Below, in pieces: positions 24,262 to 43,893 of a DNA stretch of 63,348 nucleotides (positions are counted from its first letter, which is position 1; every line of letters begins with the position of its first letter). The stretch is from positions 1-63,348 of the IMG/VR virus record IMGVR_UViG_3300042905_000928. The stretch is one strand, 5' to 3'. The DNA comes from a virus. Lineage: Duplodnaviria; Caudoviricetes. The position numbers and the translations under genes were made by a program. The notes beneath the pieces are model-generated. The model was not told the DNA's origin and did not search any database. It saw only the letters and a list, made by a program, of their open reading frames with translations.

Positions 24262-24290
24262 TTGACATTACTCTCAACTGGTCATAATAT
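24262..24290 (+). promoter_or_regulatory. sigma70 promoter of the recombination operon
   Basis: TTGACA (24262-24267), 17 nt, TAATAT (24285-24290). Confidence 0.75.
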
Positions 24291-24296
24291 TGAGTC

Positions 24297-24321
24297 TCAA
24301 CTGCTAGGAAAGGAAAATCAA
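24297..24321 (+). promoter_or_regulatory. conserved leader motif copy 1 (TCAACTGCTAG-GAAAGGAAAATCA)
   Basis: Immediately after the -10 box, covers the RBS; recurs at 30956 (+), 39775 (-), 40797 (-). Confidence 0.7.
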
Positions 24322-25221
24322 GTGAAACTAACCAATAAGTATGGTATCCCACAGACGTTTATGAATGTCTTGGAGCGCCCTACATACAGTAAAGGTAAGG
24401 CTAATATCTCAGCGACTCAGCTGTTGAATAGCCCAAAGATCGTTGCTTTGACCAAGAAGTTTGATGAGGAACTGGAACAGGACGTGGCTGACATGATTTG
24501 GTCACTGTTTGGTTCAGCGATGCACAACATTCTTGAACATGGCAAAGATGGTAATCATGTGGTGGAACAGCGTGTCCACGTAGAGCATGACGGTTGGCAC
24601 ATCTCAGGCGCTGTTGACCTACAGATTGTGAATCCTGATGGAACGATTGATATTCGTGACTACAAGACCACATCTGCATGGGCAATGATGAACGAGAAGA
24701 TTGAGTGGGAACATCAACTCAACATCTACGCATGGCTTATTCAGCGTGCAAAGAAGCAAACTGTTAGTTCTGTGGGTATTGTTGGCTTAATCCGTGATTG
24801 GAATCGCCGTGAAGCGGCTACGAAAGAGGGCTATCCAGAAGCTCCAGTCAAAGAAATCCCAATCAAACTGTGGACGTTTGAAGAGCAAGAACAGTTTATC
24901 TCTAAAAGGGTGGCATTGCATAGTGCTTGTGAGTTCGCCATGGAAACAGAGGGCGACTTACCTGACTGCACCCCAACAGAGATGTGGGAAAAGCCAACGG
25001 TTTGGGCTTTGAAGAAAGAAGGAAACATCAAGGCTAAGGCTTTGTATGAGACTGAGGCACTTGCAGAGGAAGCTTTAAAAATTGCCTCTGAGAAAGATCC
25101 CAAGTCTAAGTTCTATGTAGAAGTAAGACCAGGAGAGCGTACTCGCTGTGCGAGCTTCTGTTCTGTTGCCCAATACTGCCAACAGTATCGGGACTATTTA
25201 AATCTTAAGGAGGAAGAATGA
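24322..25221 (+). CDS. PD-(D/E)xK Cas4-like exonuclease
   Basis: ISAT, GSAMH, SGAVDL...DYKT, QLNIY, C-terminal C..FC.V...C; GTG start after AAGGAAAA. Confidence 0.8.
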   Translation: MKLTNKYGIPQTFMNVLERPTYSKGKANISATQLLNSPKIVALTKKFDEELEQDVADMIWSLFGSAMHNILEHGKDGNHVVEQRVHVEHDGWHISGAVDLQIVNPDGTIDIRDYKTTSAWAMMNEKIEWEHQLNIYAWLIQRAKKQTVSSVGIVGLIRDWNRREAATKEGYPEAPVKEIPIKLWTFEEQEQFISKRVALHSACEFAMETEGDLPDCTPTEMWEKPTVWALKKEGNIKAKALYETEALAEEALKIASEKDPKSKFYVEVRPGERTRCASFCSVAQYCQQYRDYLNLKEEE

Positions 25222-30643: not shown

Positions 30644-30658
30644 GACAAACACTATAGG

Positions 30659-30688
30659 TTGACAGGTGTTAAGAATTTCTGCTATATT
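30659..30688 (+). promoter_or_regulatory. sigma70 promoter of candidate sRNA
   Basis: TTGACA (30659-30664), 18 nt ending in extended TGc, TATATT (30683-30688). Confidence 0.75.
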
Positions 30689-30692
30689 TAGT

Positions 30693-30820
30693 GTATCAGT
30701 CCCCTTACTGATAGCCGTCAACCTGATTTTTCCGATTTAGCAGTTGGACTATCTTGACGGCAGCCCTCCAGGTGATCCCCTTCACCCTAAACCCCCAGCT
30801 AATCCCTGGGGGTTTTTCTT
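30693..30820 (+). ncRNA. candidate trans-acting antisense sRNA, four stem-loops
   Basis: Stems TATCAGT/ACTGATA, GCCGTCAA/TTGACGGC, GGTGA/TCACC and terminator AAACCCCCAG/CTGGGGGTTT; no ORF; loops complementary to phage leaders and RBSs. Confidence 0.75.
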
Positions 30821-30821
30821 T
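30789..30821 (+). terminator. intrinsic terminator of the sRNA
   Basis: 10-bp stem followed by U-rich tract. Confidence 0.8.
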
Positions 30822-30879
30822 GTGCCAATATGGTAAGAGCATGCCATGAATAATTTCCGTTAAAACGTACCTTTGTCAA

Positions 30880-30906
30880 TAACCTGAAATAGCTTATTTG
30901 AGGTTA
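30880..30906. promoter_or_regulatory. imperfect palindrome, candidate operator
   Basis: TAACCTGAAATA-GCT-TATTTGAGGTTA just upstream of the replication-operon -35. Confidence 0.45.
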
Positions 30907-30920
30907 CCTTTAAAAAGTTG

Positions 30921-30949
30921 TTGCAATTTATTTTTACTTCATTTAATCT
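30921..30949 (+). promoter_or_regulatory. sigma70 promoter of the replication operon
   Basis: TTGCAA, 17 nt, TAATCT; followed by GAGCCTCAACTGCTAG at the same spacing as the 24262 promoter. Confidence 0.7.
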
Positions 30950-30954
30950 AGAGC

Positions 30955-31356
30955 CTCAACTGCTAGAAGGAAAAATCAGGAACTGAAACAACTTCCTGAT
31001 GACAATTAGATTACCACCACGCCATTCATGGTGTGAGCTTGTGTCTCTTTGTCACTTTCTTTCTAGCATATGACGTACTCCACACGATAGCAAGAACCTA
31101 CATGGGTTGCGTGGAAGTAAACATAGGCTGATTTCATCACCCGATTTAGCCTCGTAGCCTTAAATGGGGACTACACAAGACGGAGAGCCAAGCGGTGAGA
31201 CCAACTCTCCATCGAATGAACATTAACTTAGGTAGGACTAGCAGTAACTGTGGAGTAGTGTATGGATTCGGAGAGTGTTATATGTGGGTCGGAGTGGTTA
31301 AGCACAACAGATGGTTGGCTTATCACCCTTGGGGGAACTATCAATTGGAGCAATGT
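30955..31356 (+). ncRNA. ~400-nt structured 5' leader / candidate RNA switch
   Basis: Helices 30961-30973/31056-31068, 30975-30982/30993-31000, 31076-31084/31249-31257, 31125-31131/31146-31152; alternative 30959-30966/31238-31245. Confidence 0.6.
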
Positions 31357-31656
31357 ATGAAAAACAAAGAACTTACAGACATAATCCTTGAAGCCATTAC
31401 GGAGCATGGATGTGTCACAACAACACAGATTGCAGACCTTCTCAAAGTTAATTCAGCCACCGCAGCAGGGCGGTTGACTTACCTTAGATCACAGGGTCGC
31501 ATTGTGGGCAAAAGAGCTAATTGGGCATTTAGATTGGAAGATCTAAAGGTCAAGCCCAAACAGCATATCGTTAATCAATCATTCACTGAACTATCAAATA
31601 TCTTTTACAACATAGTTCGCATGGGAGCTACAAATGAAAAAAATCAACATTCTTAA
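31357..31656 (+). CDS. winged-helix DNA-binding protein
   Basis: GGAG RBS; TTTQIADLLKVNSATAAGRLTYLRSQGRI HTH. Confidence 0.65.
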   Translation: MKNKELTDIILEAITEHGCVTTTQIADLLKVNSATAAGRLTYLRSQGRIVGKRANWAFRLEDLKVKPKQHIVNQSFTELSNIFYNIVRMGATNEKNQHS

Positions 31657-32479
31657 TATCCGCATTGATGGTGGCACACAGCCACGTCAAGAAATTGACT
31701 ACGATGTAGTGAAAGACTACGCAGAACTCATGCGTGATGGCGTGACATTTCCACCAGTCACCGTTTACTTTGATGGCGCAGAGTATTGGCTTGCAGACGG
31801 TTTCCACCGCTACCATGCCACTAAATCCAACGCTACAGCCACCATTGAAGCAGAAGTAATCACTGGTTCAATAGATGATGCTGAAGAGTATTCATTCACA
31901 GCCAACGGGGGTCGTGGTAACGATCTTACGAGAGAAGACAAGAAAGCCATCATCAGAAGAATGTTCCTGAAGAAAGAACGTTACGGAGACTGGTCACAGG
32001 AACGTATTGCCAAGCATGTCCATGTGTCACCCATGTTCGTCAGCCGAGTCAAGGCAGCCATGGAAATCAAAGATGAGCCAAAGGTCAAGAAGTTCATCAA
32101 AGATGGCGTAGAGAAAGAGATGAATGTCTCCAATATTGGTAAAAAAGCCAAGAATCAACCTACTAAACCTACTAAACCTGAAGTAGAACCGTATGACGAA
32201 AGCGAAGACAAAATCCGTGAGCTATCTGAGGTCATCACCCAGTTAGACGAGGAAGTAACGCTTCTGAAGGACAAGATAGCCATTGGTCAATGGGATGCCT
32301 CAGAAATTGAGAAGATTGACGTGGAAGAAACCCTTGTGGACTTGCGTGAACGAATCAGACTACTGGAAATTGACAACAAAGCATTGCGTGAGAGCAGAGA
32401 TATGTTCCAAAACCGTAACGCAGAGCTGATGAAAACAGTCACTTATTTACAAAGAAAGCTTAAAAAGGAAACAGCATGA
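31634..32479 (+). CDS. ParB/Srx N-terminal domain protein with HTH and coiled coil
   Basis: TQPR...FPPV...LADGFHRY; SQERIAKHVHVS HTH. Confidence 0.8.
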   Translation: MKKINILNIRIDGGTQPRQEIDYDVVKDYAELMRDGVTFPPVTVYFDGAEYWLADGFHRYHATKSNATATIEAEVITGSIDDAEEYSFTANGGRGNDLTREDKKAIIRRMFLKKERYGDWSQERIAKHVHVSPMFVSRVKAAMEIKDEPKVKKFIKDGVEKEMNVSNIGKKAKNQPTKPTKPEVEPYDESEDKIRELSEVITQLDEEVTLLKDKIAIGQWDASEIEKIDVEETLVDLRERIRLLEIDNKALRESRDMFQNRNAELMKTVTYLQRKLKKETA

Positions 32480-32640
32480 TGGATTACTCATTAATAATGA
32501 TTAAGATGCAAATTGGTTTAAAGGATTTGCACGATGCTATTAACTCCAAGGACTGGATGGAAATTGACATTCAAGCAGATAACCTTGCTTTCTTGGCAAA
32601 ACAAATGCGTGACTCAGTTGCCGACATCCAGACTAAATAA
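32476..32640 (+). CDS. hypothetical protein (54 aa)
   Basis: AAGGA RBS, coupled on both sides. Confidence 0.55.
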   Translation: MMDYSLIMIKMQIGLKDLHDAINSKDWMEIDIQADNLAFLAKQMRDSVADIQTK

Positions 32641-34115
32641 TGGAATTACACCTACGAGAACACCAACAAGAGGTCATAGAATCTCTCAGGGAAGGCTTCC
32701 GTCAAGGGCATAGGTCGCAGTTGTTATACGCACCAACAGGGTTCGGCAAGACCGAGGTAGCCATAGCCCTGATGAAAGCTACAGGCGAGAAGTTTAAACG
32801 CGCAGCCATGGTATTGGATCGCATTGTTTTGGTAGACCAAACCAGTCTTCGCTTGGATAAATACAGACTGAAGCATGGCGTATTCCAAGCTAACCACTGG
32901 CGGTATGACAAGCGAGAACGCCTACAGGTATGTTCAGCCCAAACCTTAGAACGCAGGGATGACTTTCCAGAGATGGACTTGTTAATCGTTGATGAGTGCC
33001 ACATTGCTCGTAAGCAGACATCCGAGTTCATTAAGGATAACCCCAACATCCGTGTTGTTGGCTTGACTGCTACCCCCTTCACCAAAGGACTAGGCGATCT
33101 GTATACCAATGTTGTATGCGGTTCAACCACTGAATCCTTGGTAGATGAGAAGTGGCTTGCTCCCCTGAAGGTATTCATTGCCAAAGAGATTGACATGACT
33201 GGGGCGAAGAAGTTAGCTGGTGAGTGGTCACAGGATGTGGTCACAGAGCGAGGTATGAGGTTAACAGGCGATATAGTATCTGAGTGGATCAAGAAGACTC
33301 ACGATGTATTTGGGAAACCACGCAAGACCATTGTCTTCTGTGCGGGCGTAGCCCATGGAGCAGACTTGGTTCAGCAGTTCGCAGACCATGGCTATAACTT
33401 TGTATCCATCAGCTACAAGGATGATGATGAGTTCAAAAAGGCAGCCATTGAGGACTTTGCGAAGCCAGACACCCAAATCCATGGACTGATAGCCACCGAC
33501 ATCCTCACAAGGGGTTTTGACGTATCAGATGTCATGATTGGGGTATCAGCAAGACCGTTTAGCAAATCACTGTCATCCCATGTGCAACAAATGGGGCGAG
33601 TCATGCGCCAACATCCTGAAAAGGAGTTCGCTTTATGGTTAGATCACAGTGGAAATTACCTACGCTTTCAAGATGATTGGGATGAGCTATACGAAAATGG
33701 CGTTAAATCCCTCACAAATGAAGGCGAAAAAGCCAAAAGAGAGCCAACAGAGAAGAAAAAGAAAGAATCCAAGTGTCCAGTATGCCAACATTTATGGCCA
33801 AAAAGCTCAGATACTTGCCCTAGTTGCGGTCATGTTAGACAGAAACGCAACGAAATATCCGCAGTATCAGGTCATTTAGAGGAGCTAGTCGCTGGAGCAA
33901 AGATCCGCAAGGATGATAAGCAAGACTTCTACTCACAGTTGGTATTCATTGCAAGGGATAAAGCATACAACCCCCACTGGGCAAGTCACAAGTATCGTGA
34001 GAAATTTGGCGTATGGCCAAGGGGATTGGTAGAAGTTCCTGCCCCACCGACAATGACAACCCTCAAGTGGATAAAATCACGCAACATCAAATGGTCAAAA
34101 GGTAAGAATAAATGA
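32640..34115 (+). CDS. SF2 DExH helicase (RadD/YejH-like) with Zn finger
   Basis: APTGFGKT, VDECH, GLTATP, QQMGRVMR, CxxC..CxxC. Confidence 0.9.
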   Translation: MELHLREHQQEVIESLREGFRQGHRSQLLYAPTGFGKTEVAIALMKATGEKFKRAAMVLDRIVLVDQTSLRLDKYRLKHGVFQANHWRYDKRERLQVCSAQTLERRDDFPEMDLLIVDECHIARKQTSEFIKDNPNIRVVGLTATPFTKGLGDLYTNVVCGSTTESLVDEKWLAPLKVFIAKEIDMTGAKKLAGEWSQDVVTERGMRLTGDIVSEWIKKTHDVFGKPRKTIVFCAGVAHGADLVQQFADHGYNFVSISYKDDDEFKKAAIEDFAKPDTQIHGLIATDILTRGFDVSDVMIGVSARPFSKSLSSHVQQMGRVMRQHPEKEFALWLDHSGNYLRFQDDWDELYENGVKSLTNEGEKAKREPTEKKKKESKCPVCQHLWPKSSDTCPSCGHVRQKRNEISAVSGHLEELVAGAKIRKDDKQDFYSQLVFIARDKAYNPHWASHKYREKFGVWPRGLVEVPAPPTMTTLKWIKSRNIKWSKGKNK

Positions 34116-34942
34116 GATTTGAAGATTTTGCCAAAATCCATGGACTGATCCTACGGGAAGTTACCCCCTTCAAATGGATGGCAACACCAACAGAAGACCA
34201 TCCAAACAAACGCAATGGGCGATACAAGTTCATGGGTGATATAGGATGGGTGCAAAACTGGGCAACCATGGACAAACCAGCCATGTGGAAGACAGAAGAT
34301 CGAAATGCGCTCAATCCAGAGCTGCTGCGACAAAAATCCAATTTTGAGGATGAAAGAGCAAAACTAGCAAAAAACGCTCAATCCAAGGCAGAGTGGATAA
34401 TTTCTCAATCCACCCTTCAAACGCATGAATATCTTGCCAAAAAAGGCTTTCCAGACGAAGAATCCATGGTATGGAATACTGATAAGGGCGACAAGTTAAT
34501 GGTCATACCTATGCGTAAAGGCGGAGAATTGGTAGGGTGTCAGTTGATCAATGAGCAAGGGGAAAAGAAGTTCTTGTATGGTCAGCAGACTAAAGGGGCA
34601 TCCTTCAGGATCGGTGCAAAAGGCATCCCTATACTTTGCGAAGGTCTTGCCACTGGATTGTCGGTCAGGTCGGTAATGCAAGCGAATAAACTCGATTGTG
34701 CTATCTACATTTGCTTTTCCGCAAGCAATGTTCAAGAAGTAAGTCGGCACATCCTCGGTGGGTTCATCATTGCTGATAATGATCCCAACGGAGTCGGAGA
34801 ATCCACTGCTCAAAAAACAGGTAAGCCATATTGGATTTCCGACACAGTTGGAGAAGATTTTAATGACTACCACATAAGAGTAGGCACTTTTAGGGCTAGT
34901 CAATCAATTAAGCCGTTAACTTATAAAAATAAGATTGAGTGA
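34112..34942 (+). CDS. Toprim DNA primase-like protein
   Basis: YLAKKG, CEGLATG, ADND, GEDFNDY. Confidence 0.8.
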   Translation: MRFEDFAKIHGLILREVTPFKWMATPTEDHPNKRNGRYKFMGDIGWVQNWATMDKPAMWKTEDRNALNPELLRQKSNFEDERAKLAKNAQSKAEWIISQSTLQTHEYLAKKGFPDEESMVWNTDKGDKLMVIPMRKGGELVGCQLINEQGEKKFLYGQQTKGASFRIGAKGIPILCEGLATGLSVRSVMQANKLDCAIYICFSASNVQEVSRHILGGFIIADNDPNGVGESTAQKTGKPYWISDTVGEDFNDYHIRVGTFRASQSIKPLTYKNKIE

Positions 34943-35189
34943 TTAGTCGCATAAACTTGGCTTCTATCTCCCTTACTCTTTGTTTTGATAAGCCATACAG
35001 TGATCCACAGCCCTTCAGTGTTTTACCCTTGGCTCTTTCAGACATAATATGCCAGTATTTCTCTCGCAATTCCATCTTTGTGTAGTTGTTATACAGTTGG
35101 CAGAAGTCAGCCATGGAAGGGAAGTCTATAAACACATACCCCCCTTCCGTATAAATTGGCACTTTGCCATTACCCAGTCTTAAATTCAT
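34908..35189 (-). CDS. sigma70 region-4-like HTH protein
   Basis: KTLKGCGSLYGLSKQRVREIEAK; start after AAGGGA. Confidence 0.6.
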   Translation of the reverse strand: MNLRLGNGKVPIYTEGGYVFIDFPSMADFCQLYNNYTKMELREKYWHIMSERAKGKTLKGCGSLYGLSKQRVREIEAKFMRLITQSYFYKLTA

Positions 35190-35190
35190 G

Positions 35191-35364
35191 TCAGTCCCTT
35201 GGATCAATTTCACAAACATCAACAATATCCCAATCATCCTCATAGGTGGCTTCTTCAGAATTAAGATAATCCATAGCCATATCACAGGCTTCATCTGCAT
35301 CACTGGCATCTACAACCACCACTTTGGTGGCAGTTGTAGTCAGTTTAACTTCGTATCTTCTCAT
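35191..35364 (-). CDS. small acidic protein (MRRYEVKL..., 57 aa)
   Basis: GAGGT RBS; below ORF-track cutoff; paralogue pattern V.A.D..EA...A. Confidence 0.6.
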   Translation of the reverse strand: MRRYEVKLTTTATKVVVVDASDADEACDMAMDYLNSEEATYEDDWDIVDVCEIDPRD

Positions 35365-35546
35365 GTTGTTACCTCTTTAACATCAGTTAACCCATCTTCT
35401 GCCCAAACAATGTCTTTTGAGTCGTAGTCTTCTTCGTTGTATCTATCAGATGCAATCTCTTCTGCAATCCCTTCATGCTCTGCTTCAACATCAAAGTAAT
35501 AGACAGTCGTTTCTGTTCTTGGTATACCCACTTTAAACTTCTTCAT
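35361..35546 (-). CDS. small acidic protein, same paralogue family
   Basis: MKKFKV...FDVEAEHEGIAEEIA. Confidence 0.6.
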   Translation of the reverse strand: MKKFKVGIPRTETTVYYFDVEAEHEGIAEEIASDRYNEEDYDSKDIVWAEDGLTDVKEVTT

Positions 35547-35733
35547 TGATACCATCCTTTTCCAGTTGGCTAGCAATGCCATTCAGAAGAATCTGCACAG
35601 CCATGTAAACAAACAAGGCAGATTTACCACGATCTTTAGCTAGGTCATCAACCCTAGCCATGGCAGTTTCAATATCATCAGGCACAAAGAAGATTCCTGA
35701 TTTCATTTTCAATAGTTGTTCAGTTGTTGTCAT
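35533..35733 (-). CDS. hypothetical protein
   Basis: AAGGGGA RBS at 35739-35745. Confidence 0.6.
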   Translation of the reverse strand: MTTTEQLLKMKSGIFFVPDDIETAMARVDDLAKDRGKSALFVYMAVQILLNGIASQLEKDGINEEV

Positions 35734-35881
35734 TTTCTTCCCCTTCCATTTCATCTAAGTAGCACTGTCTTGCTTCTTTATGGAAAGTAACAATAATGTT
35801 ACCTTTACGATCCCATGAAATTACCCAGTCAGCATGACCAAATACCTCTTCGCAATACTCGTCTAGTAAATCGCTATTCAT
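35720..35881 (-). CDS. hypothetical acidic protein (53 aa)
   Basis: Fills gap with overlapping start/stop. Confidence 0.5.
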   Translation of the reverse strand: MNSDLLDEYCEEVFGHADWVISWDRKGNIIVTFHKEARQCYLDEMEGEENDNN

Positions 35882-36168
35882 TCTGAAGCCCATCCAAAAA
35901 ATAAATACTCATCATCTTTAATATGGATGCAACCCGCATCCCCCCATTTGTCATCCACCCTTGAGTCGCAGTCATCAATCAGTTGTTCGGCATACACAAA
36001 GGCATCCAGTCCTTCAGCCAATGGAATGACCACAAAAGAGTTCTTCTCAGCGATAGTCCCAGTGTAGCCACCATGCCCATGCTGATACCTAGCTTCGTAA
36101 ACTAAACTATCAAAGGCTTTCTTGGCAGTCGAACCCAGTCCCACAGTCATAAACACTACTGCTCCCAT
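35878..36168 (-). CDS. hypothetical protein (GHGGYTGTIAEK family)
   Basis: GAGGAG RBS; DKWGDAGCI and FFGWAS motifs. Confidence 0.65.
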   Translation of the reverse strand: MGAVVFMTVGLGSTAKKAFDSLVYEARYQHGHGGYTGTIAEKNSFVVIPLAEGLDAFVYAEQLIDDCDSRVDDKWGDAGCIHIKDDEYLFFGWASE

Positions 36169-36713
36169 TATTCGCACTCCTCATCTGATTCATATTGCAT
36201 AGATATATCCATCTGATCATCAATGTATCTAGGTATGTTCTCTTGCACCCACGCTGAAGTGCATTGCTCAATGTCGTAATACTCTTCTTCGCCATCTATC
36301 CATGCACCACAGAAAGCCATGCCTGATTCGTAGTAATAACCCTTCACTTTGAAGCCAAGGTCAGCCAATACCGCATATGCTTGAGTTGGTGGACTCCAAG
36401 CAGAATCAAAGTAAACAAACATATCTTTCTCGCCACCTTGTGCATGATTATCTCTAGCAGAATCGTAGCCAATGTCCCATTTAGTCCCCCAGTTCTGCAC
36501 TCGCCAGTCCCACCAAGCAGTTTCAGGATCTACTGGATTCTCATTACCCCTAATATGCGGAAAAGTAGGCTTCACTTCCACAGTTTTGTAATCAGGCTCA
36601 GGCACAAGAGTCCCCAAGAATTTGCCTGATTCCCAAGCATCCTTGGCTTTCTTAATCATTTCAGGATCATCATGAGTTAAATACAAGTTGTTATCGCACC
36701 AGTTAGGCATCAT
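36168..36713 (-). CDS. DUF1281/YubB ferredoxin-like domain protein
   Basis: MPNWCDN, WWDWRVQNWGTKWD, FDSAWSPP, YYESGMAFCG. Confidence 0.75.
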   Translation of the reverse strand: MMPNWCDNNLYLTHDDPEMIKKAKDAWESGKFLGTLVPEPDYKTVEVKPTFPHIRGNENPVDPETAWWDWRVQNWGTKWDIGYDSARDNHAQGGEKDMFVYFDSAWSPPTQAYAVLADLGFKVKGYYYESGMAFCGAWIDGEEEYYDIEQCTSAWVQENIPRYIDDQMDISMQYESDEECE

Positions 36714-36859
36714 TCATTCTCCTTAAGTTTATAAATATTAAATACAGATACATCTTGAAAACGCACACAATCATTGAGATACTGGATTAGTGCATCAACC
36801 GCTTCTTCTTCATTCTCCACTTCCAATTCATCTTTAAAAGTAATTTCAAACTTCGGCAT
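36710..36859 (-). CDS. small acidic protein
   Basis: MPKFEITF...EVENEEEA. Confidence 0.55.
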   Translation of the reverse strand: MPKFEITFKDELEVENEEEAVDALIQYLNDCVRFQDVSVFNIYKLKENE

Positions 36860-37043
36860 CTTGATCCACCTTTGCGTATGTTCCAGTAATGTTAGATTCA
36901 AATAGATATAAGTCATCTGCATGAATTCCTTCAAAATGTCTTGTTTCTGCAATATGATGTGCTTCCTCACTATCTTTGGCTTCCATCTCATATGTGTAAA
37001 CCCATTGCTGAGTTTCATGTATTTCAACAGTGAAATTAGGCAT
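36846..37043 (-). CDS. small acidic protein, same paralogue family
   Basis: MPNFTVEIHE...MEAKDSEEAHHIA. Confidence 0.6.
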   Translation of the reverse strand: MPNFTVEIHETQQWVYTYEMEAKDSEEAHHIAETRHFEGIHADDLYLFESNITGTYAKVDQDAEV

Positions 37044-37326
37044 TTTCATTCTCCATAAACTCCAAAACATCAGTCCTAAAGGTATCCAGTGGATAATCCT
37101 CATTGATGATGTCAGTCAATAGATCAAGAAAATCATCTGTAGACATATTGTCGCTACCCAACCAACCTTCAACCATGGTTTTGCTTATGAGTTTCTTCCC
37201 AGTTGCCAAGTAGTAATCTGCTTCCTCTTCAGTTGCAAAGGTATGCAGTATTTCATCCCCATTGACATTGCTATGCCATATGTCCCATTGATCTTCACTT
37301 CTTTGTGATTTATATGTTGTTGCCAT
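37036..37326 (-). CDS. hypothetical acidic protein
   Basis: GAGGAG RBS. Confidence 0.6.
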   Translation of the reverse strand: MATTYKSQRSEDQWDIWHSNVNGDEILHTFATEEEADYYLATGKKLISKTMVEGWLGSDNMSTDDFLDLLTDIINEDYPLDTFRTDVLEFMENENA

Positions 37327-37328
37327 GA

Positions 37329-37496
37329 TTACTCCTCAAATTCGTTAATGTCGTAGAACACTATTCCCCAGTGTTCACCTTTTTCTATTAAATCGGACTG
37401 TTCCATTTCCCTAGCAATTTCTTCTGCTTGTTCAATCGAGTCAGCATCAATCAATACTCTTGTTTCAGTTGAAAAACTGGCAGTAAAACTAGGCAT
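37329..37496 (-). CDS. small acidic protein, same paralogue family
   Basis: MPSF...IDADSIEQAEEIA. Confidence 0.6.
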   Translation of the reverse strand: MPSFTASFSTETRVLIDADSIEQAEEIAREMEQSDLIEKGEHWGIVFYDINEFEE

Positions 37497-37653
37497 TTTC
37501 ATTCTCCTCAATTTGTTTAATTTTCTCTTCTGTTTCTGCTCTTGTAGGGAACATTAGGTAATCTCCAACCTCATCTATGTATTCATCAGCACCATTTGAG
37601 TCCAAGATAATCCAATAGTCCGCTACTATTTCTACTGCTTTCCATTTAGGCAT
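37489..37653 (-). CDS. hypothetical acidic protein
   Basis: AAGGGGA RBS at 37659-37665. Confidence 0.6.
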   Translation of the reverse strand: MPKWKAVEIVADYWIILDSNGADEYIDEVGDYLMFPTRAETEEKIKQIEENENA

Positions 37654-37876
37654 CTTCATCCCCTTCAATATCAACAATCACAAAGCCATCATCTAGGATC
37701 AAACCTACTTCCAACGGCTCTCCATCCATGTAGAAGAAAATGTTTCTATCTTCGTCATCTTCCACTTCATCCCAAGAATCCAATGCAATATCCACCCAAG
37801 TAAAATCCACCTTACTGGCATTTATATAGTCAGGCATATAAAACCCTCGGCAGTGTTTAGTATTGTATTTATTCAT
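37646..37876 (-). CDS. hypothetical acidic protein
   Basis: AAGGGG RBS at 37883-37888. Confidence 0.6.
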   Translation of the reverse strand: MNKYNTKHCRGFYMPDYINASKVDFTWVDIALDSWDEVEDDEDRNIFFYMDGEPLEVGLILDDGFVIVDIEGDEDA

Positions 37877-37886
37877 GTCATACCCC

Positions 37887-38189
37887 TTATTCAAAGTCTT
37901 TACCAACAAACACATTATTTTTACGGAGCAAGGCAATCGCATGGTCGTTTAATGACATTACTCCATCATATTCAACCAGTGTGCGACTGCCCACCTTGTC
38001 AAACTCAAACCAAAGCCCAATGCTTTCAAACAAGTCAGCACTGGGTATATCCCATTCAATAAACCCAGTGTTGTCCTTGCGGAAGTAAAGCTCCAGTGTT
38101 GACTCATGCTCACCTAAGTCCCTAGCACCCCAAGAACCCTCAAGGAATAGCTCAGATTTGACAGTCATAGAATCAATGAGTTCAGCCAT
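37887..38189 (-). CDS. hypothetical protein
   Basis: IGLWF...LVEYDGV motif; tightly packed operon. Confidence 0.6.
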   Translation of the reverse strand: MAELIDSMTVKSELFLEGSWGARDLGEHESTLELYFRKDNTGFIEWDIPSADLFESIGLWFEFDKVGSRTLVEYDGVMSLNDHAIALLRKNNVFVGKDFE

Positions 38190-38191
38190 AA

Positions 38192-38527
38192 TCAATACTC
38201 AGAAGTAAGCATCAATACATTGTCAGTCAGGAAGAATTCATACTCCCCTTCAGGGCAGTCAGTGAAGTCAATATGCTTTGTTTTGATCACATTGCAATCG
38301 CCATCTTCCACAGTGATTGTGGCTTTACCATCAGCCACCACCATCTTGATTGACAGGAAGTAGTCAACCTCTTGCAGTTCAAAGAATTCAGTCGCAACAA
38401 TATCCAAAAACCAGTAGGCACTGGCTTCACGACAGAAGTATTCCACCCCATCCGTATGCACCAGTTTTGGCACAAACATATTGGATTTATAGTATTGCTC
38501 AGTCCCAGTAAATTGATTCAATTCCAT
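38192..38527 (-). CDS. DUF6876-like protein
   Basis: LNQFTGTEQYY, TDGV, AYWFLD, IDFTDCP, LMLTSEY; AAGGGGA RBS. Confidence 0.7.
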   Translation of the reverse strand: MELNQFTGTEQYYKSNMFVPKLVHTDGVEYFCREASAYWFLDIVATEFFELQEVDYFLSIKMVVADGKATITVEDGDCNVIKTKHIDFTDCPEGEYEFFLTDNVLMLTSEY

Positions 38528-38528
38528 G

Positions 38529-38738
38529 TTATTCCCCTTGCATAAGTTCGTTATAAAAAGACCATGTAGAGCTAATACAGTCCCCACAGGCATTAAACAC
38601 ATCTACCACTACTCCATCATCATCCATCTTGATATTGATATAACCACCCGCCTTACCATCCTTATCTACCATGATGGCAAGAGAGTCGTTATCCAATTCA
38701 GCGACAGATAAGTCAAACCCCTTAATATTCGTTTTCAT
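38529..38738 (-). CDS. hypothetical protein
   Basis: GAGGT RBS; DDGVVVDVF. Confidence 0.6.
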   Translation of the reverse strand: MKTNIKGFDLSVAELDNDSLAIMVDKDGKAGGYINIKMDDDGVVVDVFNACGDCISSTWSFYNELMQGE

Positions 38739-38740
38739 AA

Positions 38741-39010
38741 TTACCTCAACACTGGCAAAACAGATTTCTCAGGATGCGAAGTAAACAACGCACCACCATC
38801 ATTGCCTTCATCATCCATGGATGCGAACAACCAAATACCAGTTTCCAACATGAAAGCAACAGGTCTTGAAGTCCAGTCCATGTCCTCTGCTTCTCTATGG
38901 CTTACATAGCGAACCCTAGTTATCTTCTTGCCAAGCAATATGCTACTGGCTTCAGAAGTCCAGTAATCCTCAATCTCCAATTCATTCATCTTTGATAGTT
39001 CAGCAGTCAT
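38741..39010 (-). CDS. hypothetical protein (DDEGNDGGAL family)
   Basis: AAGGGGA RBS at 39016-39022. Confidence 0.65.
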   Translation of the reverse strand: MTAELSKMNELEIEDYWTSEASSILLGKKITRVRYVSHREAEDMDWTSRPVAFMLETGIWLFASMDDEGNDGGALFTSHPEKSVLPVLR

Positions 39011-39566
39011 TTGTTTCCCCTTTTGTAACAGTAAATTCTCTTTCTTTCCATTTAGTGATGCGACATAGCACGCCATTGGTGGCTCTGAAAGCATCCCTAC
39101 CCAAGTAGGACTCATAAGTAAAAGTATCCTCTGAGAAGCTCCCAAAGCTCATTGCGGTGGCAAACTTGACCACATCCCCCATGATCAGTTTTGCCGATTT
39201 CTTCTTCTCTGATTTCTTGCGACAGGCTTCTCTCCAGACCCTTGCATGGTTATTAAATGGTGGAAAGAGAGCATCCAGTTTATCTAGCAGTTTCTTAGGT
39301 GCATCATAGTAATAAGGATGAGCAGTTTCACCCATCTCTTTGTAGTAAAGCCAATCATCCTCTTTGCGAGTCAGGATAATCATGGCTTCTGCTAAGATAA
39401 TCCCAGTTGTCTTATCTTGCACCTTGTGGATGCCATACGCAGTAGTCCCACGCATTGATACATCCGTTAATTCCCACTTGTGAGTATCAGACTCACTTGT
39501 GAATTCACGCACCAACCAGTCTTTAGTCGGCAGTGAGTCAAACTTTTGCGAACCAGTCCATCCCAT
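39000..39566 (-). CDS. DUF6927-like protein
   Basis: MGWT, YKEMGETAHPYYYDAP, WREAC; AAGGGGA RBS. Confidence 0.7.
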   Translation of the reverse strand: MGWTGSQKFDSLPTKDWLVREFTSESDTHKWELTDVSMRGTTAYGIHKVQDKTTGIILAEAMIILTRKEDDWLYYKEMGETAHPYYYDAPKKLLDKLDALFPPFNNHARVWREACRKKSEKKKSAKLIMGDVVKFATAMSFGSFSEDTFTYESYLGRDAFRATNGVLCRITKWKEREFTVTKGETNDC

Positions 39567-39576
39567 GTTATTCCCC

Positions 39577-39765
39577 TTAATGAGTTAAGTTAGCGTAATG
39601 CACGCCATGTTCAGCACATACCTTGACGAAGAAATCATCCTTCTTCAACGCACCAGTCATAGCGGATGCAATCTCTCTTGCAGTCCGATAAGGCATGGCG
39701 TTTTCTAAATGCACCCTAGCGATTGCTTTAGGCACAGGCTTTGAATTGATATACCACTGAATCAT
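39577..39765 (-). CDS. hypothetical protein
   Basis: AGGAG RBS preceded by the leader motif. Confidence 0.6.
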   Translation of the reverse strand: MIQWYINSKPVPKAIARVHLENAMPYRTAREIASAMTGALKKDDFFVKVCAEHGVHYANLTH

Positions 39766-39774
39766 TTGTATCTC

Positions 39775-39785
39775 CTAGCAGTTGA
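39775..39785 (-). promoter_or_regulatory. conserved leader motif copy 3 (TCAACTGCTAG)
   Basis: Starts 5 nt 3' of the hammerhead cut site and overlaps the RBS. Confidence 0.7.
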
Positions 39786-39877
39786 CTAAGACTGGATGCA
39801 ATTTGCGGACTCATGCCAACAGGCAATTTGCGGACTCATGCACCCAGTTTCGGGGATTCACCCCTCATCAGTTAGTC
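39784..39877 (-). ncRNA. type I hammerhead ribozyme
   Basis: GACUAA-CUGAUGA-GGGG/CCCC-GAAA-CUGGGUGCA/UGCAUCCAG-UC-UUAGUC; GUC cut after 39790. Confidence 0.9.
39798..39841. repeat. 19-bp direct repeat, two copies
   Basis: GCAATTTGCGGACTCATGC at 39798-39816 and 39823-39841. Confidence 0.95.
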
Positions 39878-40039
39878 TTTTTCTAGCTCGCAGTGCATGA
39901 AGAACATAAAGCAAAGACCAACAGTGGATGCAATCAAAGTAAAGATATACAGTGGTGCGGGATTCTCTGATACAACATAGATAGAGAGCATAAACAGACC
40001 AAAGATACCAAGGTTTAAAAAGTAAGCTAAGTGTTTCAT
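39872..40039 (-). CDS. small 2-TM membrane protein
   Basis: Two hydrophobic helices; AAGGGGA RBS at 40045-40051. Confidence 0.6.
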   Translation of the reverse strand: MKHLAYFLNLGIFGLFMLSIYVVSENPAPLYIFTLIASTVGLCFMFFMHCELEKD

Positions 40040-40049
40040 CATCATCCCC

Positions 40050-40325
40050 TTAAAAAGTTTTAACCCAAATGCGATTAGCATCAGCGAAGTCGTAGATTGT
40101 GTCTAGCAGATAGTCAGCATCTTCAATGTAGTCAGTCCATGCGAGTTCATCTACTGCATCTTCAAAGTTGCTGAAGTAAATGTAGTCAGCAGTTTTAGGA
40201 TTAGCATCAATGAATGATTTAAACGCTTGGTGCAAACAGGTAAGCATTTCATGACCATCAATATCGTCATTCTCATACTTGGCATATAGGTCAGCCAAGT
40301 CAATCTCATGTTTCCAGTTAGCCAT
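40050..40325 (-). CDS. hypothetical acidic protein (IYDFADANRIWV family)
   Basis: GGGAG RBS. Confidence 0.65.
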   Translation of the reverse strand: MANWKHEIDLADLYAKYENDDIDGHEMLTCLHQAFKSFIDANPKTADYIYFSNFEDAVDELAWTDYIEDADYLLDTIYDFADANRIWVKTF

Positions 40326-40327
40326 GA

Positions 40328-40519
40328 TTATTTCTCCCAGTTAGCAAGCATGAATTCAATCTCTCTGAATTGTGCTTCTGATAAGTTGATGTAATTAGTC
40401 TTACCTAATGCGGATTTGATTTGCATACGGATTTGGAAGGTATCGCCCAGTGACTCAATGACGGCATCAGTTGGCAACACTTTCCAAAACTGGTTACAGA
40501 TATAAGTTTCTTGATTCAT
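40328..40519 (-). CDS. hypothetical protein
   Basis: AAGGGGA RBS at 40525-40531. Confidence 0.6.
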   Translation of the reverse strand: MNQETYICNQFWKVLPTDAVIESLGDTFQIRMQIKSALGKTNYINLSEAQFREIEFMLANWEK

Positions 40520-40536
40520 AAGTTTCCCCTTTATTT

Positions 40537-40587
40537 GTCAATGACCCATCACTGGGTTTCGGCTATTGAAGCCATCATCAGATTGAC
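40537..40587 (-). ncRNA. type I hammerhead ribozyme
   Basis: GUCAAU-CUGAUGA-U-GGCU/AGCC-GAAA-CCCA(GUGA)UGGG-UC-AUUGAC; GUC cut after 40543. Confidence 0.9.
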
Positions 40588-40787
40588 TGAGTAAAACGCA
40601 CCTTTATATCTATTAGGTTTTGAATGTTATCTAATGCTTTAGGTAGATCAAACTTTGCTTCAGATAACAATTCCAATATATCCCCATCTAACCAGTATTC
40701 ATTAACTACATCCCAGTGTTGTCTTTCTCTAGCAATCATACGGACTGCACCGATTAACATCATTTCGTCAGCATCTTTTGTAGTCAT
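40578..40787 (-). CDS. hypothetical protein, first gene of leftward operon
   Basis: TAGGGGA RBS preceded by leader-motif variant. Confidence 0.6.
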   Translation of the reverse strand: MTTKDADEMMLIGAVRMIARERQHWDVVNEYWLDGDILELLSEAKFDLPKALDNIQNLIDIKVRFTQSI

Positions 40788-40788
40788 C

Positions 40789-40807
40789 TTTTTCCCCTAA
40801 CAGTTGA
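40789..40807 (-). promoter_or_regulatory. conserved leader motif copy 4 (TCAACTGTTAG-GGGAAAAA)
   Basis: One C>T change relative to the other copies; covers the RBS. Confidence 0.6.
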
Positions 40808-40841
40808 TTGATATTTACATATAACAGGTGATACAGACTTC

Positions 40842-40871
40842 ATTTTCAATAAATAGCTATTGACTTGTCAA
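40842..40871 (-). promoter_or_regulatory. probable promoter of the leftward operon
   Basis: TTGACA (40871-40866), 18 nt, GAAAAT; AT-rich upstream; -10 imperfect. Confidence 0.45.
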
Positions 40872-41149
40872 CACCTTTTTACAATTATTTTTCACTCTAT
40901 ATAGAATAAGGCTTCCAAGGCATTTGATACAGCTGAGAAAGGGCTTGCTTGTGGATCAGTGGGCATAAAAACACAAAGCATGGCTCTAAAACGCACTCTA
41001 ACGCTTGTTAGAGTAGCGAAGCGGAACAGTGTATTGGGTAATAACATAGAGAGAGATACGCCAATAGACCAATAGACAGACACCAGTTGCACATAGTCCT
41101 AATCTTGTCCTATTATCAGGCACTACTAAGAAATCCTCTATATATACCT

Positions 41150-42049
41150 ATGACCAAACTAACACGCAAACAAATACAGGATGGACTCAAGGCAATGCCT
41201 ATGGATACGCTATTACTGGGTGCGAGTAGTAAGACAACAAGGCTTACCCCAAAACAGATTAAGTTCGCAGAGGAAATCGCGAAGGGAGAGTCAAAGGCTC
41301 AGGCTTACAGGAAGTCTTATAACTCCACTGGCAAACCACATACCCAGTCACGCAATGGGCAGAAGCTACTAAAGAATGACGCAATACAAACCCAAGTGGA
41401 TGCCTTCAAGGTGGCTATTGAAGCGAGTAAATATACAACCCCTGCTCACTTGAGGATGCACATAATCCATAAGTTGACTCAAAAGACACTGGATGATGAA
41501 GTCCCTCACGCACAACAGTTGAAGGCACTGGAGTTGCTGGGCAAGATAACAGAGGTATCACTGTTCACGCACAGGACTGAGGTCATCAAGACGGATAACA
41601 GTGAGTCAATGAAGGAGAAGCTAATCAAGTCATTGGCACTGGCTATGAATTCTACTGGCGGGAAAAAGATTCCTGAGTATTCTGCGGAGTCATTGTTGGC
41701 AGAGCTAACTGGCGAAGCACCAGTTGATGATGTTGTCACTAACTTTAATGTCACAGATGTTAGTGTGATGGATGTAGAAGCACATGATGATGGTGGCACT
41801 GGGTTATCCGATTGCGATTCTGCGTCACCCACTACACCGCCACCCCTAAAATTTGAGGATTCGCACTCTGGCCCATTGCATAGTAATCCGCACACTCAAT
41901 CACCAACTTTTGAGAATTCCCTTCCAAATCAATCACCTGGCACTCTAACAAATGTTAGAGTGGGGGAGGGGGTATCAAAAATTGATCCAGACGAGGACAA
42001 TGTTTCTACAGAAACACCCCCCGTCACTAATTGGGTAGAAAAGGCATAG
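41150..42049 (+). CDS. terminase small subunit-like protein with long disordered tail
   Basis: LTPKQIKFAEEIAKGESKAQAYRKSY HTH, ALELLGK; upstream of terL. Confidence 0.7.
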   Translation: MTKLTRKQIQDGLKAMPMDTLLLGASSKTTRLTPKQIKFAEEIAKGESKAQAYRKSYNSTGKPHTQSRNGQKLLKNDAIQTQVDAFKVAIEASKYTTPAHLRMHIIHKLTQKTLDDEVPHAQQLKALELLGKITEVSLFTHRTEVIKTDNSESMKEKLIKSLALAMNSTGGKKIPEYSAESLLAELTGEAPVDDVVTNFNVTDVSVMDVEAHDDGGTGLSDCDSASPTTPPPLKFEDSHSGPLHSNPHTQSPTFENSLPNQSPGTLTNVRVGEGVSKIDPDEDNVSTETPPVTNWVEKA

Positions 42050-42189: not shown

Positions 42190-42410
42190 CCCCAGCTCAA
42201 AAGGATATATTTTTGGTTATAGATGAGTGGTGGAAAATGTATGGTTTCGGCCCCTCGATTGATGATGTTATGCGAGTAACTGGTGAGAGAAGTCGCAGTA
42301 ACGTGGCGCGCAAGATGAAGAAACTAGTAGAACTTGGGGTTTGCAAAGGGGTTCCAAGGCGGGCGCGATCTATACGGCCAGCGGGTTTGAGAGTGAGAAC
42401 AATTGAGTAA
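42186..42410 (+). CDS. LexA-type DNA-binding domain only
   Basis: MTPAQ...GFGPSIDDV...S.SNV...LVELG...RARSI; no peptidase domain. Confidence 0.75.
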   Translation: MTPAQKDIFLVIDEWWKMYGFGPSIDDVMRVTGERSRSNVARKMKKLVELGVCKGVPRRARSIRPAGLRVRTIE

Positions 42411-43893
42411 GTTAGAAGACATCATAGAGAGTCTGCCTGAGGCAGAGCGTGAGTCTTTACTTGCAATGGCACAGGCTTATACAGAGGCTGTGACCAGGGA
42501 GAAGGCGACTGTTGAGTTCATGGAGTTTGTTAGAGTCATGTGGCCTGGGTTCATTCACGGACGTCATCATGCCTTAATGGCAAAGAAGTTTGAGGATATA
42601 GCTAACGGCAAAATTAAACGGTTAATCATTAATATGCCGCCGCGACACACGAAGTCAGAGTTTGCCAGTTATTTGTTGCCAGCTTGGTTTCTAGGTAAAT
42701 ACCCTAATAAAAAGATTATTCAGTGTTCTAACACAGCGGAGCTTGCGGTAGGCTTTGGTCGTAAGGTGCGTAACTTAGTAGACGGAGAACAGTATGCAAA
42801 AGTCTTTCCCAATGTCCGTCTTAGGTCTGACTCTAAAGCTGCTGGTCGCTGGAGTACTAATGGTAACGGGGAGTATTTTGCTATTGGTGTTGGCGGTACT
42901 GTTACAGGTAAAGGTGCGGATCTACTCATTATTGATGACCCTCACTCGGAACAAGAAGCAGCATTAGCAGCTAGTAACCCTGAGGTGTACGACAAGGTTT
43001 ATGAGTGGTACGGCTCTGGTCCACGTCAGCGTTTACAGCCAGGCGGTGCAATTGTCATTGTTATGACCCGCTGGGGTAAGCGAGATCTAACTGGTCGTAT
43101 TTTACAAAGTACGATTGAGCGAGATGGTGATGAATGGGAACAGATTGACCTTCCAGCTATCTTGCCGAGTGAAAAACCTTTATGGCCTGAGTTCTGGTCG
43201 TATGAGGAACTGGTCAAGCTTAGAAACGAATTGCCCGTATCTAAGTGGTCAGCCCAGTATCAACAGCAACCGACCTCAGAAGCGGGTGCGCTTGTTAAGC
43301 GTGAGTGGTGGCAAATGTGGGAACAAGAGAATCCTCCGCAGTGCGAGTTCATCATTCAGTCTTGGGATACAGCGTTCACTAAGAATGAACGGTCAGACTA
43401 CTCGGCGTGTACGACATGGGGGGTCTTTTATAAAGACGAGAACCCAGATGATGCCAATGTGATTTTGTTGGACGCCTTTAAGGAACGGCTAGAGTTCCCT
43501 GAGTTAAAAGAAAAGGCGTTACAGTATTACAAAGAATGGGAGCCTGATGCGTTCATAGTCGAGGCAAAAGCTTCTGGTGCGCCATTAATTTTTGAATTAA
43601 GAAGGATGGGTATTCCCGTACAAGAATTTACACCAACCCGTGGTAATGATAAGATTTCAAGAGTAAACTCCGTATCAGACTTATTTGCTTCTGGCAAGAT
43701 ATGGTGTCCACGTACTAGATGGGCAGAAGAGGTGATGGAAGAGATGGCTGCTTTCCCTAATTCAGATCACGATGACTTGGTTGACTCATCAACCCAAGCG
43801 CTGATTAGGTTTAGAAAAGGCGGCTTTTTACGATTACAGACCGATGAAGTAGACGATCCTGTTTACTTCAGACGCAAAGTTGCATATTACTAA
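42403..43893 (+). CDS. terL: terminase large subunit
   Basis: MPPRHTKS Walker A, LLIIDDP Walker B, QSWDTA, HDDLVD nuclease motifs. Confidence 0.95.
   Translation: MSKLEDIIESLPEAERESLLAMAQAYTEAVTREKATVEFMEFVRVMWPGFIHGRHHALMAKKFEDIANGKIKRLIINMPPRHTKSEFASYLLPAWFLGKYPNKKIIQCSNTAELAVGFGRKVRNLVDGEQYAKVFPNVRLRSDSKAAGRWSTNGNGEYFAIGVGGTVTGKGADLLIIDDPHSEQEAALAASNPEVYDKVYEWYGSGPRQRLQPGGAIVIVMTRWGKRDLTGRILQSTIERDGDEWEQIDLPAILPSEKPLWPEFWSYEELVKLRNELPVSKWSAQYQQQPTSEAGALVKREWWQMWEQENPPQCEFIIQSWDTAFTKNERSDYSACTTWGVFYKDENPDDANVILLDAFKERLEFPELKEKALQYYKEWEPDAFIVEAKASGAPLIFELRRMGIPVQEFTPTRGNDKISRVNSVSDLFASGKIWCPRTRWAEEVMEEMAAFPNSDHDDLVDSSTQALIRFRKGGFLRLQTDEVDDPVYFRRKVAYY

Follow-up and report, generated by a model that had tools for sequence, protein, structure and literature searches.

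What hammerhead ribozymes do in bacteria and phages is a question that has stood since their discovery there in 2011. A synthetic ribozyme insulator, RiboJ, is reportedly due to Lou et al. in 2012. In the engineered design of Ghodasara and Voigt (2017), an sRNA target tag and an RBS come after such an insulator, and a RiboJ-type ribozyme provides all cistrons with one and the same defined 5' end, irrespective of the upstream sequence (PMC5737548). For prophages, Perreault et al. (2011) described several ribozymes per operon flanking short gene blocks, the cleavage of polycistronic hammerhead RNAs of prophages has been demonstrated in vitro, and in the haloviruses HF1 and HF2 a distance of 13 nt separates the hammerhead HHphage from the start codon after it, and a 5' end has been mapped at most 3 nt from the cut (PMC3088659). 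The processing hammerheads of prophages (PMC3088659) and the synthetic ribozyme/sRNA-tag/RBS design (PMC5737548) are the closest precedents for the locus described here.

The locus belongs to a virus record of IMG/VR, 63,348 bases long and with a completeness rating of 100%, the whole of which was analysed and is referred to below as the window; the DNA runs that contain it are lake-water metagenomes, and no RNA run is listed for positions 30650-40620. A block of small ORFs on the minus strand (approximately 34.9-40.8 kb) diverges from the packaging genes and includes the ribozyme under study, HH-B, which is surrounded by the following genes:

41087-42049: TerS
42403-43893: TerL
39872-40081, minus strand: upstream hydrophobic ORF of 69 aa, whose RNA would keep the ribozyme body as its 3' tail on predicted cleavage
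39577-39765, minus strand: downstream ORF of 62 aa (AUG at 39765-39763), first cistron of the predicted 3' product

The 62-aa ORF (39577-39765) has no match in Pfam or PHROG, and no further promoter-like or terminator-like site was found on the minus strand between a promoter-like site at 40871-40842 and the start of HH-B at 39877. A blastn search of positions 38500-41500 against the GenBank phage collection gave no match. Relatives of TerL on genome contigs were found only in metagenome bins of many phyla, so that no host can be named, and a hammerhead covariance model (R1, see below) detected no hammerhead in 15 TerL loci on genome contigs. Elsewhere in the window, an ORF of 3934 aa (11986-23790, plus strand) had suggested an N4-like identity, which was rejected: its product is of the polyvalent type, combining ADP-ribosyltransferase, Strawberry-notch-type helicase and LPD38 domains, and is no N4-type RNA polymerase. 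Ahead of a small ORF of winged-helix-like type lies a non-coding stretch (31055-31240, plus strand) that is 77-81% conserved in the related genome G002 and might represent another structured RNA or else a long 5' UTR.

A first-pass annotation of this DNA had described a complete type I hammerhead on the minus strand at 39784-39877, having a stem I that overlaps the upstream stop codon and a cut after the GUC that ends at 39790. Cores, three helices, minimum free energy (MFE) fold and covariance model (50.8 bits) all confirm the ribozyme, and its anatomy places both the stop codon and the cut as described:

39784-39877, minus strand: HH-B, type I hammerhead (stem I open) of 94 nt, recognized by sequence, fold, descriptor and model R1
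39872-39877, minus strand: 5' strand of stem I, GACUAA, containing the upstream stop UAA (39874-39872)
39865-39871, minus strand: conserved core CUGAUGA, its columns invariant in the 19-copy alignment A1
39852-39864, minus strand: stem II hairpin GGGG-UGAAU-CCCC (sequence, fold, R1 alignment)
39848-39851, minus strand: conserved core GAAA, A39848 paired with U39791, its columns invariant in A1
39792-39847, minus strand: stem III, 56 nt in all, with 9-10 bp and an apical insert of 38 nt (fold)
39791 and 39790, minus strand: U39791 and C39790, between stem III and the cut (sequence)
between 39790 and 39789, minus strand: predicted cut site, after GUC (sequence)
39784-39789, minus strand: 3' strand of stem I, UUAGUC, the new 5'-OH end upon predicted cleavage

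Every position of the HH-B core is canonical (C3-U4-G5-A6-N7-G8-A9 and G12-A13-A14), the cleavage triplet G39792-U39791-C39790 fits N-U-H, and sequence and fold agree on the core-closing pairs A39848-U39791, G39864-C39852 and A39872-U39789. On the minus strand the stem III hairpin opens with CUGGGUGCA and closes with UGCAUCCAG, followed by UC and UUAGUC. The MFE structure of 104 nt is the three-way junction of HH-B, in which stem I is open and the other two stems are closed, at -33.5 kcal/mol (z -2.77; 1 of 200 shuffles equally good). When 40 more nucleotides downstream are included, the MFE structure (-39.4 kcal/mol) is no longer the hammerhead fold, so that cleavage of HH-B would have to be co-transcriptional. 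A search for a tertiary contact of stem I with loop II yielded no pairing partner. The predicted 3' product begins UUAGUCAACUGCUAGGAG and has its AUG (39765-39763) at 24 nt from the cut.

A search with TerL, of which the best 80 of at least 596 loci were used (71-82% identity), provided the related loci. An initial descriptor asked for the core, for at least 4 bp in stem I and for at least 3 bp in each of stems II and III; by it, many of these loci have type I hammerheads, all on the strand opposite to TerL, and the window has a second copy. With stricter stems, the descriptor had 26 matches in the 892,692 bases of window and loci, versus 0 in each of 20 first-order Markov shuffles. Nineteen hammerhead copies of related phages, HH-B and its orthologue being left out, were aligned (A1) and used to build R1. 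On the window at E<=10 this model has exactly two matches, the second copy HH-A (61.3 bits, E 2.4e-16, full length) and HH-B (E 4.5e-13, model positions 1-52 of 52, the stem III insert being read as an insertion). R1 further gave 26 matches over 83 sources, and matches in 5 of 13 whole records of relatives; in the complete genomes G003 and G004 it found no hammerhead. Twelve of the 15 pairs in A1 have changed on both sides, and none of 500 shuffles reaches the covariation score of the alignment. Its cells are paired in 98.6% of cases, against 24-47% with slid partners, a percentage that is partly built in, since the descriptor used to choose the rows itself requires pairing; stronger arguments for the family come from the diversity of pair types and from the descriptor's shuffle control.

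The curated Rfam models do not report this family. At gathering score they had 0 matches over the whole window, at E<=10 none around HH-B or around its orthologue, and at threshold none in the loci of 9 relatives, nor in the loci L006, L068 and L079. A canonical family member scores 21.1 bits with Hammerhead_HH9, whose gathering score is 52, and 18 bits with RAGATH-1-hammerhead, sub-threshold values that point to a hammerhead subfamily missed by the curated models at their thresholds. On the evidence of sequence and covariance, HH-B is a member of a compact family of type I hammerheads located between cistrons in a group of freshwater phages, and its identity as a ribozyme is well supported. 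Two other candidates were not counted: the hammerhead flag in locus L041 is a false positive of a loose regular expression, and L002 2346-2403 (plus strand) was omitted from the family counts (irregular stem III, only 25 bits by R1). The latter contig is an unrelated viral one that shares an exact 25-nt core and stem II with HH-B, and has repeated hairpins downstream.

Across 24 family copies stem I is 6 bp long, and upstream stop codons in the family abut or overlap the ribozyme. Start codons, each with a GGAG-like site ahead of it, lie 20-39 nt past the predicted cut (24 nt at HH-B), which would leave a short 5' leader, independent of context, before the RBS, as in the anatomy of ribozyme insulators. 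An A is found directly 5' of stem I in 22 of the 24 copies, and the two bases 3' of the stem are A in 19 and 20 of them, respectively. These conserved residues, which flank the 6-bp stem, sit at the distance where contacts between stem I and loop II occur, and they may be the family's substitute for that contact. At least 8 of the 24 copies have an extra base after CUGAUGA, including the extra U of HH-A and of the G001 orthologue of HH-B; HH-B itself lacks it and keeps the canonical core. The place of insertion is the same as in a viroid hammerhead, said to have been described by De la Pena and Flores in 2001, that has one extra nucleotide between A9 and stem II.

The second hammerhead of the window is located in the same operon:

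40537-40587, minus strand: HH-A, type I hammerhead of 51 nt with one extra U after CUGAUGA (descriptor, R1)
between 40543 and 40542, minus strand: predicted cut site of HH-A (sequence)

The stop codon UGA of the ORF upstream of HH-A (40580-40578) is at the same time the first UGA of its core. HH-A lies between genes one and two of the operon, and HH-A and HH-B bracket a three-gene block of approximately 750 nt, as is also the case in G001. The G001 orthologue of HH-B has kept ribozyme and leader, with a short stem III loop, and a search with the 188-aa downstream ORF retrieved three contigs, at 83% identity, with the same ribozyme and leader; their ribozymes close stem III with a loop of 10 nt and have an additional U behind CUGAUGA. 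The 38-nt stem III insert is specific to the HH-B lineage, relatives having a 10-nt loop in its place, and it contains a repeat:

39823-39841 and 39798-39816 (within 39798-39841), minus strand: two exact copies of a 19-mer in the HH-B stem III insert

In the window this 19-mer has these 2 matches and no other, and 0 of 100 shuffles reached 2. The long form of stem III is unchanged in contigs of runs X4, X5 and X6, and a contig of run X7 lacks 28 nt of the insert, so that long and short forms of HH-B both circulate. In a separate contig of run X5, a different hammerhead is joined to the same leader. A handle for a protein or ligand is one possibility for the insert.

The leader that follows HH-B contains a short box that is also present in other leaders of the window, and scanning for the complement of this box led to a candidate sRNA:

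39772-39785, minus strand: leader box UCAACUGCUAGGAG after HH-B, including the Shine-Dalgarno sequence AGGAG (39776-39772), complementary to the sRNA seed
24295-24323, plus strand: leader box after the promoter TTGACA-17-TAATAT (24262-24290), with two-helix complementarity to the sRNA (-30.0 kcal/mol)
40794-40809, minus strand: AAUCAACUGUUAGGGG, a degenerate leader box in front of gene one of the leftward operon (-18.8 kcal/mol)
30695-30822, plus strand: candidate sRNA, with a predicted promoter (30659-30688) and intrinsic terminator (30789-30815)
30738-30746, plus strand: seed of the sRNA, UAGCAGUUG, complementary to the leader box
30954-30981, plus strand: leader neighbouring the sRNA, with the box and a second sRNA-complementary stretch, the main predicted target (-37.7 kcal/mol)

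The predicted promoter of the candidate sRNA is the best sigma70-like one in the region, matching at 11 of 12 positions and including TG, its predicted terminator has 10 bp, and its fold has a z score of -6.7. The sRNA is present in five phages, namely the window and, as homologues, G001, G006, G015 and G016. Promoter and terminator are conserved, as is the core UAGCAG(UUG), of which UAGCAG is invariant in all five, and the remaining body is divergent. A duplex scan of the window with the whole sRNA, which produced mostly long-loop artefacts, was used only as a lead to the two-helix pairing and redone with the seed region. With the neighbouring leader, the sRNA of each of the five phages pairs through the seed and through a second helix, which differs in sequence in every genome and does so by compensatory changes. 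The cognate sRNA-leader duplexes have energies of -37.1, -32.9, -35.0, -34.3 and -29.2 kcal/mol versus -14.3 to -27.1 kcal/mol for non-cognate ones, and no row or column of the cross table has a pair stronger than the cognate one. Comparative sequence data of this kind, above all the compensatory second helix, are evidence for a real RNA-RNA interaction at the neighbouring leader. The same leader (30950-31010, plus strand) also has a conserved hairpin, whose stem co-varies around the conserved loop CUGAAACAA.

The leader of HH-B pairs with the sRNA by the seed only (-21.9 kcal/mol); both sides are conserved, and no compensatory changes were seen. The duplex background has a mean of -14.0 kcal/mol (sd 3.7), with 1563 of 25324 windows (approximately 6%) reaching -20. 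In G001, the sRNA forms 14 consecutive pairs with the leader of the HH-B orthologue and extends 3 nt (GUC) into the 3' strand of stem I. Opening of the 12-nt target is predicted to cost 5.5 kcal/mol in the uncleaved versus 3.6 kcal/mol in the cleaved RNA, a modest and model-dependent difference. The exact 9-mer CAACTGCTA occurs six times in the window versus approximately 0.5 expected, three of them in leaders. The sRNA-bearing genomes carry the box (window, G001 and G006, four sites each), and the complete genomes G003 and G004 have neither box nor sRNA match. The sites at 24295 (plus strand), 30954 (plus strand) and 40794 (minus strand) each stand behind promoter-like sequence, and in the window, G001 and G006 the box CAACUGCUAGG is found approximately 7 nt past -10-like hexamers (transcription starts predicted). 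In the HH-B product, too, the first-pass annotation had placed the motif near the 5' end, as in promoter-generated leaders; for the 40806 leader, the best promoter-like site ends 33 nt upstream. Because the box is shared with promoter-led leaders and is complementary to the conserved seed, the cistrons behind HH-B probably belong to the sRNA regulon, and a link between HH-B and the sRNA is plausible.

Adjacency of hammerhead and box is found in several relatives, but it is not a general property of the family. In the unbiased TerL-anchored set, the box follows the hammerhead in only 5 of 24 copies, with 19 of 24 having no box downstream, HH-A and the hammerhead of the sRNA-bearing G006 included. 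Hammerhead and box are joined in the G001 orthologue of HH-B and at three hammerheads of G002, and an IMG/VR scan for hammerhead plus box returned 14 stretches, with at least seven distinct ribozymes before AACUGCUAGGAG and in front of different genes. In all 14 stretches the strands of stem I are complementary, a pairing that was not demanded by the search pattern. Genomes G015 and G016 contain hammerhead-box pairs and sRNA together; in G014, G017 and G018, which have hammerhead and box and whose records are 30-48% complete, the sRNA was not found. The box in the form UGCUAGGA is also present at intercistronic junctions without hammerhead, in L006 (4 sites), L025 and L068, and these junctions likewise have no clear promoter. 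On the minus strand of L006, UAAC-UGCUAGGAG occurs at four ribozyme-free intercistronic junctions, two of them behind a small hairpin in a repeated segment. With the box behind 5 of 24 copies and at ribozyme-free junctions, these data do not make cleavage a necessity for sRNA action.

We favour, with moderate confidence, a reading in which HH-B is a predicted functional processing hammerhead and 5'-end insulator, with the downstream cistrons probably in the sRNA regulon and the pairing independent of the cut. Transcription of the leftward operon would begin, at predicted starts, in the divergent promoter region around 40.85 kb, and in vivo the nascent ribozyme would fold and cut itself after C39790. 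The upstream fragment (genes 40519-39872) would keep its stop codon and end, at its 3' side, in the hairpins of stems II and III with a 2',3'-cyclic phosphate. The downstream fragment would carry a 5'-OH, which might have an effect of its own, and a 24-nt leader, ahead of the AUG, made up of the 6-nt remnant of stem I, the box AACUGCUAGGAG and 7 nt. Repression by the sRNA at this leader would most likely be exerted by occluding the Shine-Dalgarno sequence, and the cut would at most make the sRNA site somewhat more accessible; that the cut is needed for sRNA action we consider unlikely. The first-pass annotation had gone further, proposing that self-cleavage serves as a surrogate transcription start that feeds the cistrons into the sRNA circuit. 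This proposal gains from the hammerhead, the conserved sRNA and the complementarity of the box, but loses by the seed-only match and the 19 of 24 copies without box. Its broader form, in which hammerheads give internal cistrons the box of primary transcripts and one sRNA silences both classes of cistrons, with possible feedback of the sRNA on stem I folding, is a tentative idea that we rather doubt.

Processing may also be all that HH-B does, the ribozyme being active, the box a common ribosome-binding cassette and the HH-B leader no physiological sRNA target, with an adjacency devoid of regulatory meaning. We think this unlikely, although other leaders follow 19 of the 24 family hammerheads, UGCUAGGA stands at hammerhead-free junctions in L006, L025 and L068, and the sRNA duplex energy is just within approximately the top 6% of background; moreover, the AA after stem I is a family feature by itself, so that part of the box match comes from the ribozyme. 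Such a reading has to contend with the six copies of CAACTGCTA where approximately 0.5 are expected, three being in leaders, with the co-occurrence of sRNA and box across genomes, and with the perfect 14-bp match to the HH-B leader in G001. The opposite extreme, a strict coupling in which cleavage is required and the sRNA acts only on a 5'-proximal box set by the new end, is improbable. The box sites of the window, G001 and G006 (four each) do have a -10-like hexamer or a hammerhead in front of them, at least seven distinct hammerheads precede a box, the predicted opening energy of the target falls from 5.5 to 3.6 kcal/mol on cleavage, and the G001 pairing enters the 3' strand of stem I by 3 nt. 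However, the starts are only predicted, the best promoter-like site is 33 nt upstream of the 40806 leader, the box is present at internal junctions without ribozyme, and the sRNA target is outside the ribozyme fold, so that uncleaved RNA could be bound too; we also know of no requirement that links sRNA action to 5' proximity.

The remaining readings have little in their favour. Control of the ribozyme by the sRNA, whose pairing with the box and the end of stem I would compete with the 6-bp stem and lower cleavage, so that operon processing would respond to the sRNA, is very improbable: the seed core begins at C39784, the final base of stem I, the sRNA of G001 pairs with the GUC of that stem, and all family members have a short stem I (6 bp), but 1-3 stem I nucleotides are affected and no more, the ribozyme is transcribed and able to fold before the target fully emerges, and most family members have no box. 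Hardly any weight is given to HH-B as an inactive relic or chance look-alike, made inactive by the 38-nt insert or by missing tertiary contacts. The intact core and the R1 E value of 4.5e-13, the placing of the insert at the stem III tip, a part free to vary among family members, and the long form that is identical in contigs of three further runs and coexists with a short one all speak against a relic, for which the absence of an Rfam match, the tertiary contact that was not identified and the competing fold in a longer context can be cited. We give next to no credence to a box that is a DNA operator or promoter part, with the sRNA seed as another operator in opposite orientation. The box does stand at about +1 of several promoter-like sites, but it has no dyad symmetry and is found behind hammerheads where no promoter-like site is seen, and the compensatory second helix between the sRNA and its neighbouring leader points to RNA pairing.

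The processing and insulating hammerhead that we favour for HH-B bears on the question of what these ribozymes do in phages. The family is abundant and compact and follows a clear position rule, with one ribozyme per intercistronic gap and a predicted cut approximately 25 nt before the start codon, and in a subset of it there is a concrete candidate link to an sRNA of the phage, for which pairing with at least one leader has compensatory support. If true, this would be the first natural case, within the literature searched, of self-cleavage setting the 5' end of an sRNA-regulated leader, and a natural counterpart of the engineered ribozyme insulator with sRNA tag. Even without the sRNA link, a family missed by the Rfam thresholds would improve ribozyme annotation in freshwater viromes.

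Compared with the type I hammerheads of Rfam (clan CL00010, e.g. Hammerhead_HH9; RAGATH-1-hammerhead), HH-B has the core CUGAUGA/GAAA/GUC in common, as well as the same junction with stem I open and the pairs A15.1-U16.1 and G10.1-C11.1. The phage family differs from them by scoring below every Rfam threshold, by a stem I of invariably 6 bp between conserved A residues, and by the absence from this stem of an internal or hairpin loop for the usual loop-loop contact; HH-B in addition has a 56-nt stem III. The hammerheads of HF1/HF2 (HHphage) and of prophages resemble HH-B in flanking genes and in standing ahead of a start codon, but mostly have type II or variant cores, and the text of that report proposes for them neither a trans-acting sRNA nor a shared leader (PMC3088659). 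The novelty claimed by the first-pass annotation has to be narrowed: the literature search found no natural ribozyme/sRNA target/RBS arrangement and no natural sRNA coupling, but a 5' end made by a phage hammerhead had already been described for HF1/HF2, as the text of the same study reports (PMC3088659). With the engineered RiboJ design, as outlined in its report, HH-B shares the order of hammerhead, short sRNA target, RBS and gene, and it differs in that the arrangement is natural, known from sequence, and in that the target overlaps the Shine-Dalgarno sequence (PMC5737548). The role that suits HH-B best is RNA processing by a ribozyme between cistrons, as put forward for prophages in 2011 (PMC3088659). 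What is new, set against the main text of that study, is the hammerhead subfamily and, in some lineages, its juxtaposition with the box of a probable sRNA regulon.
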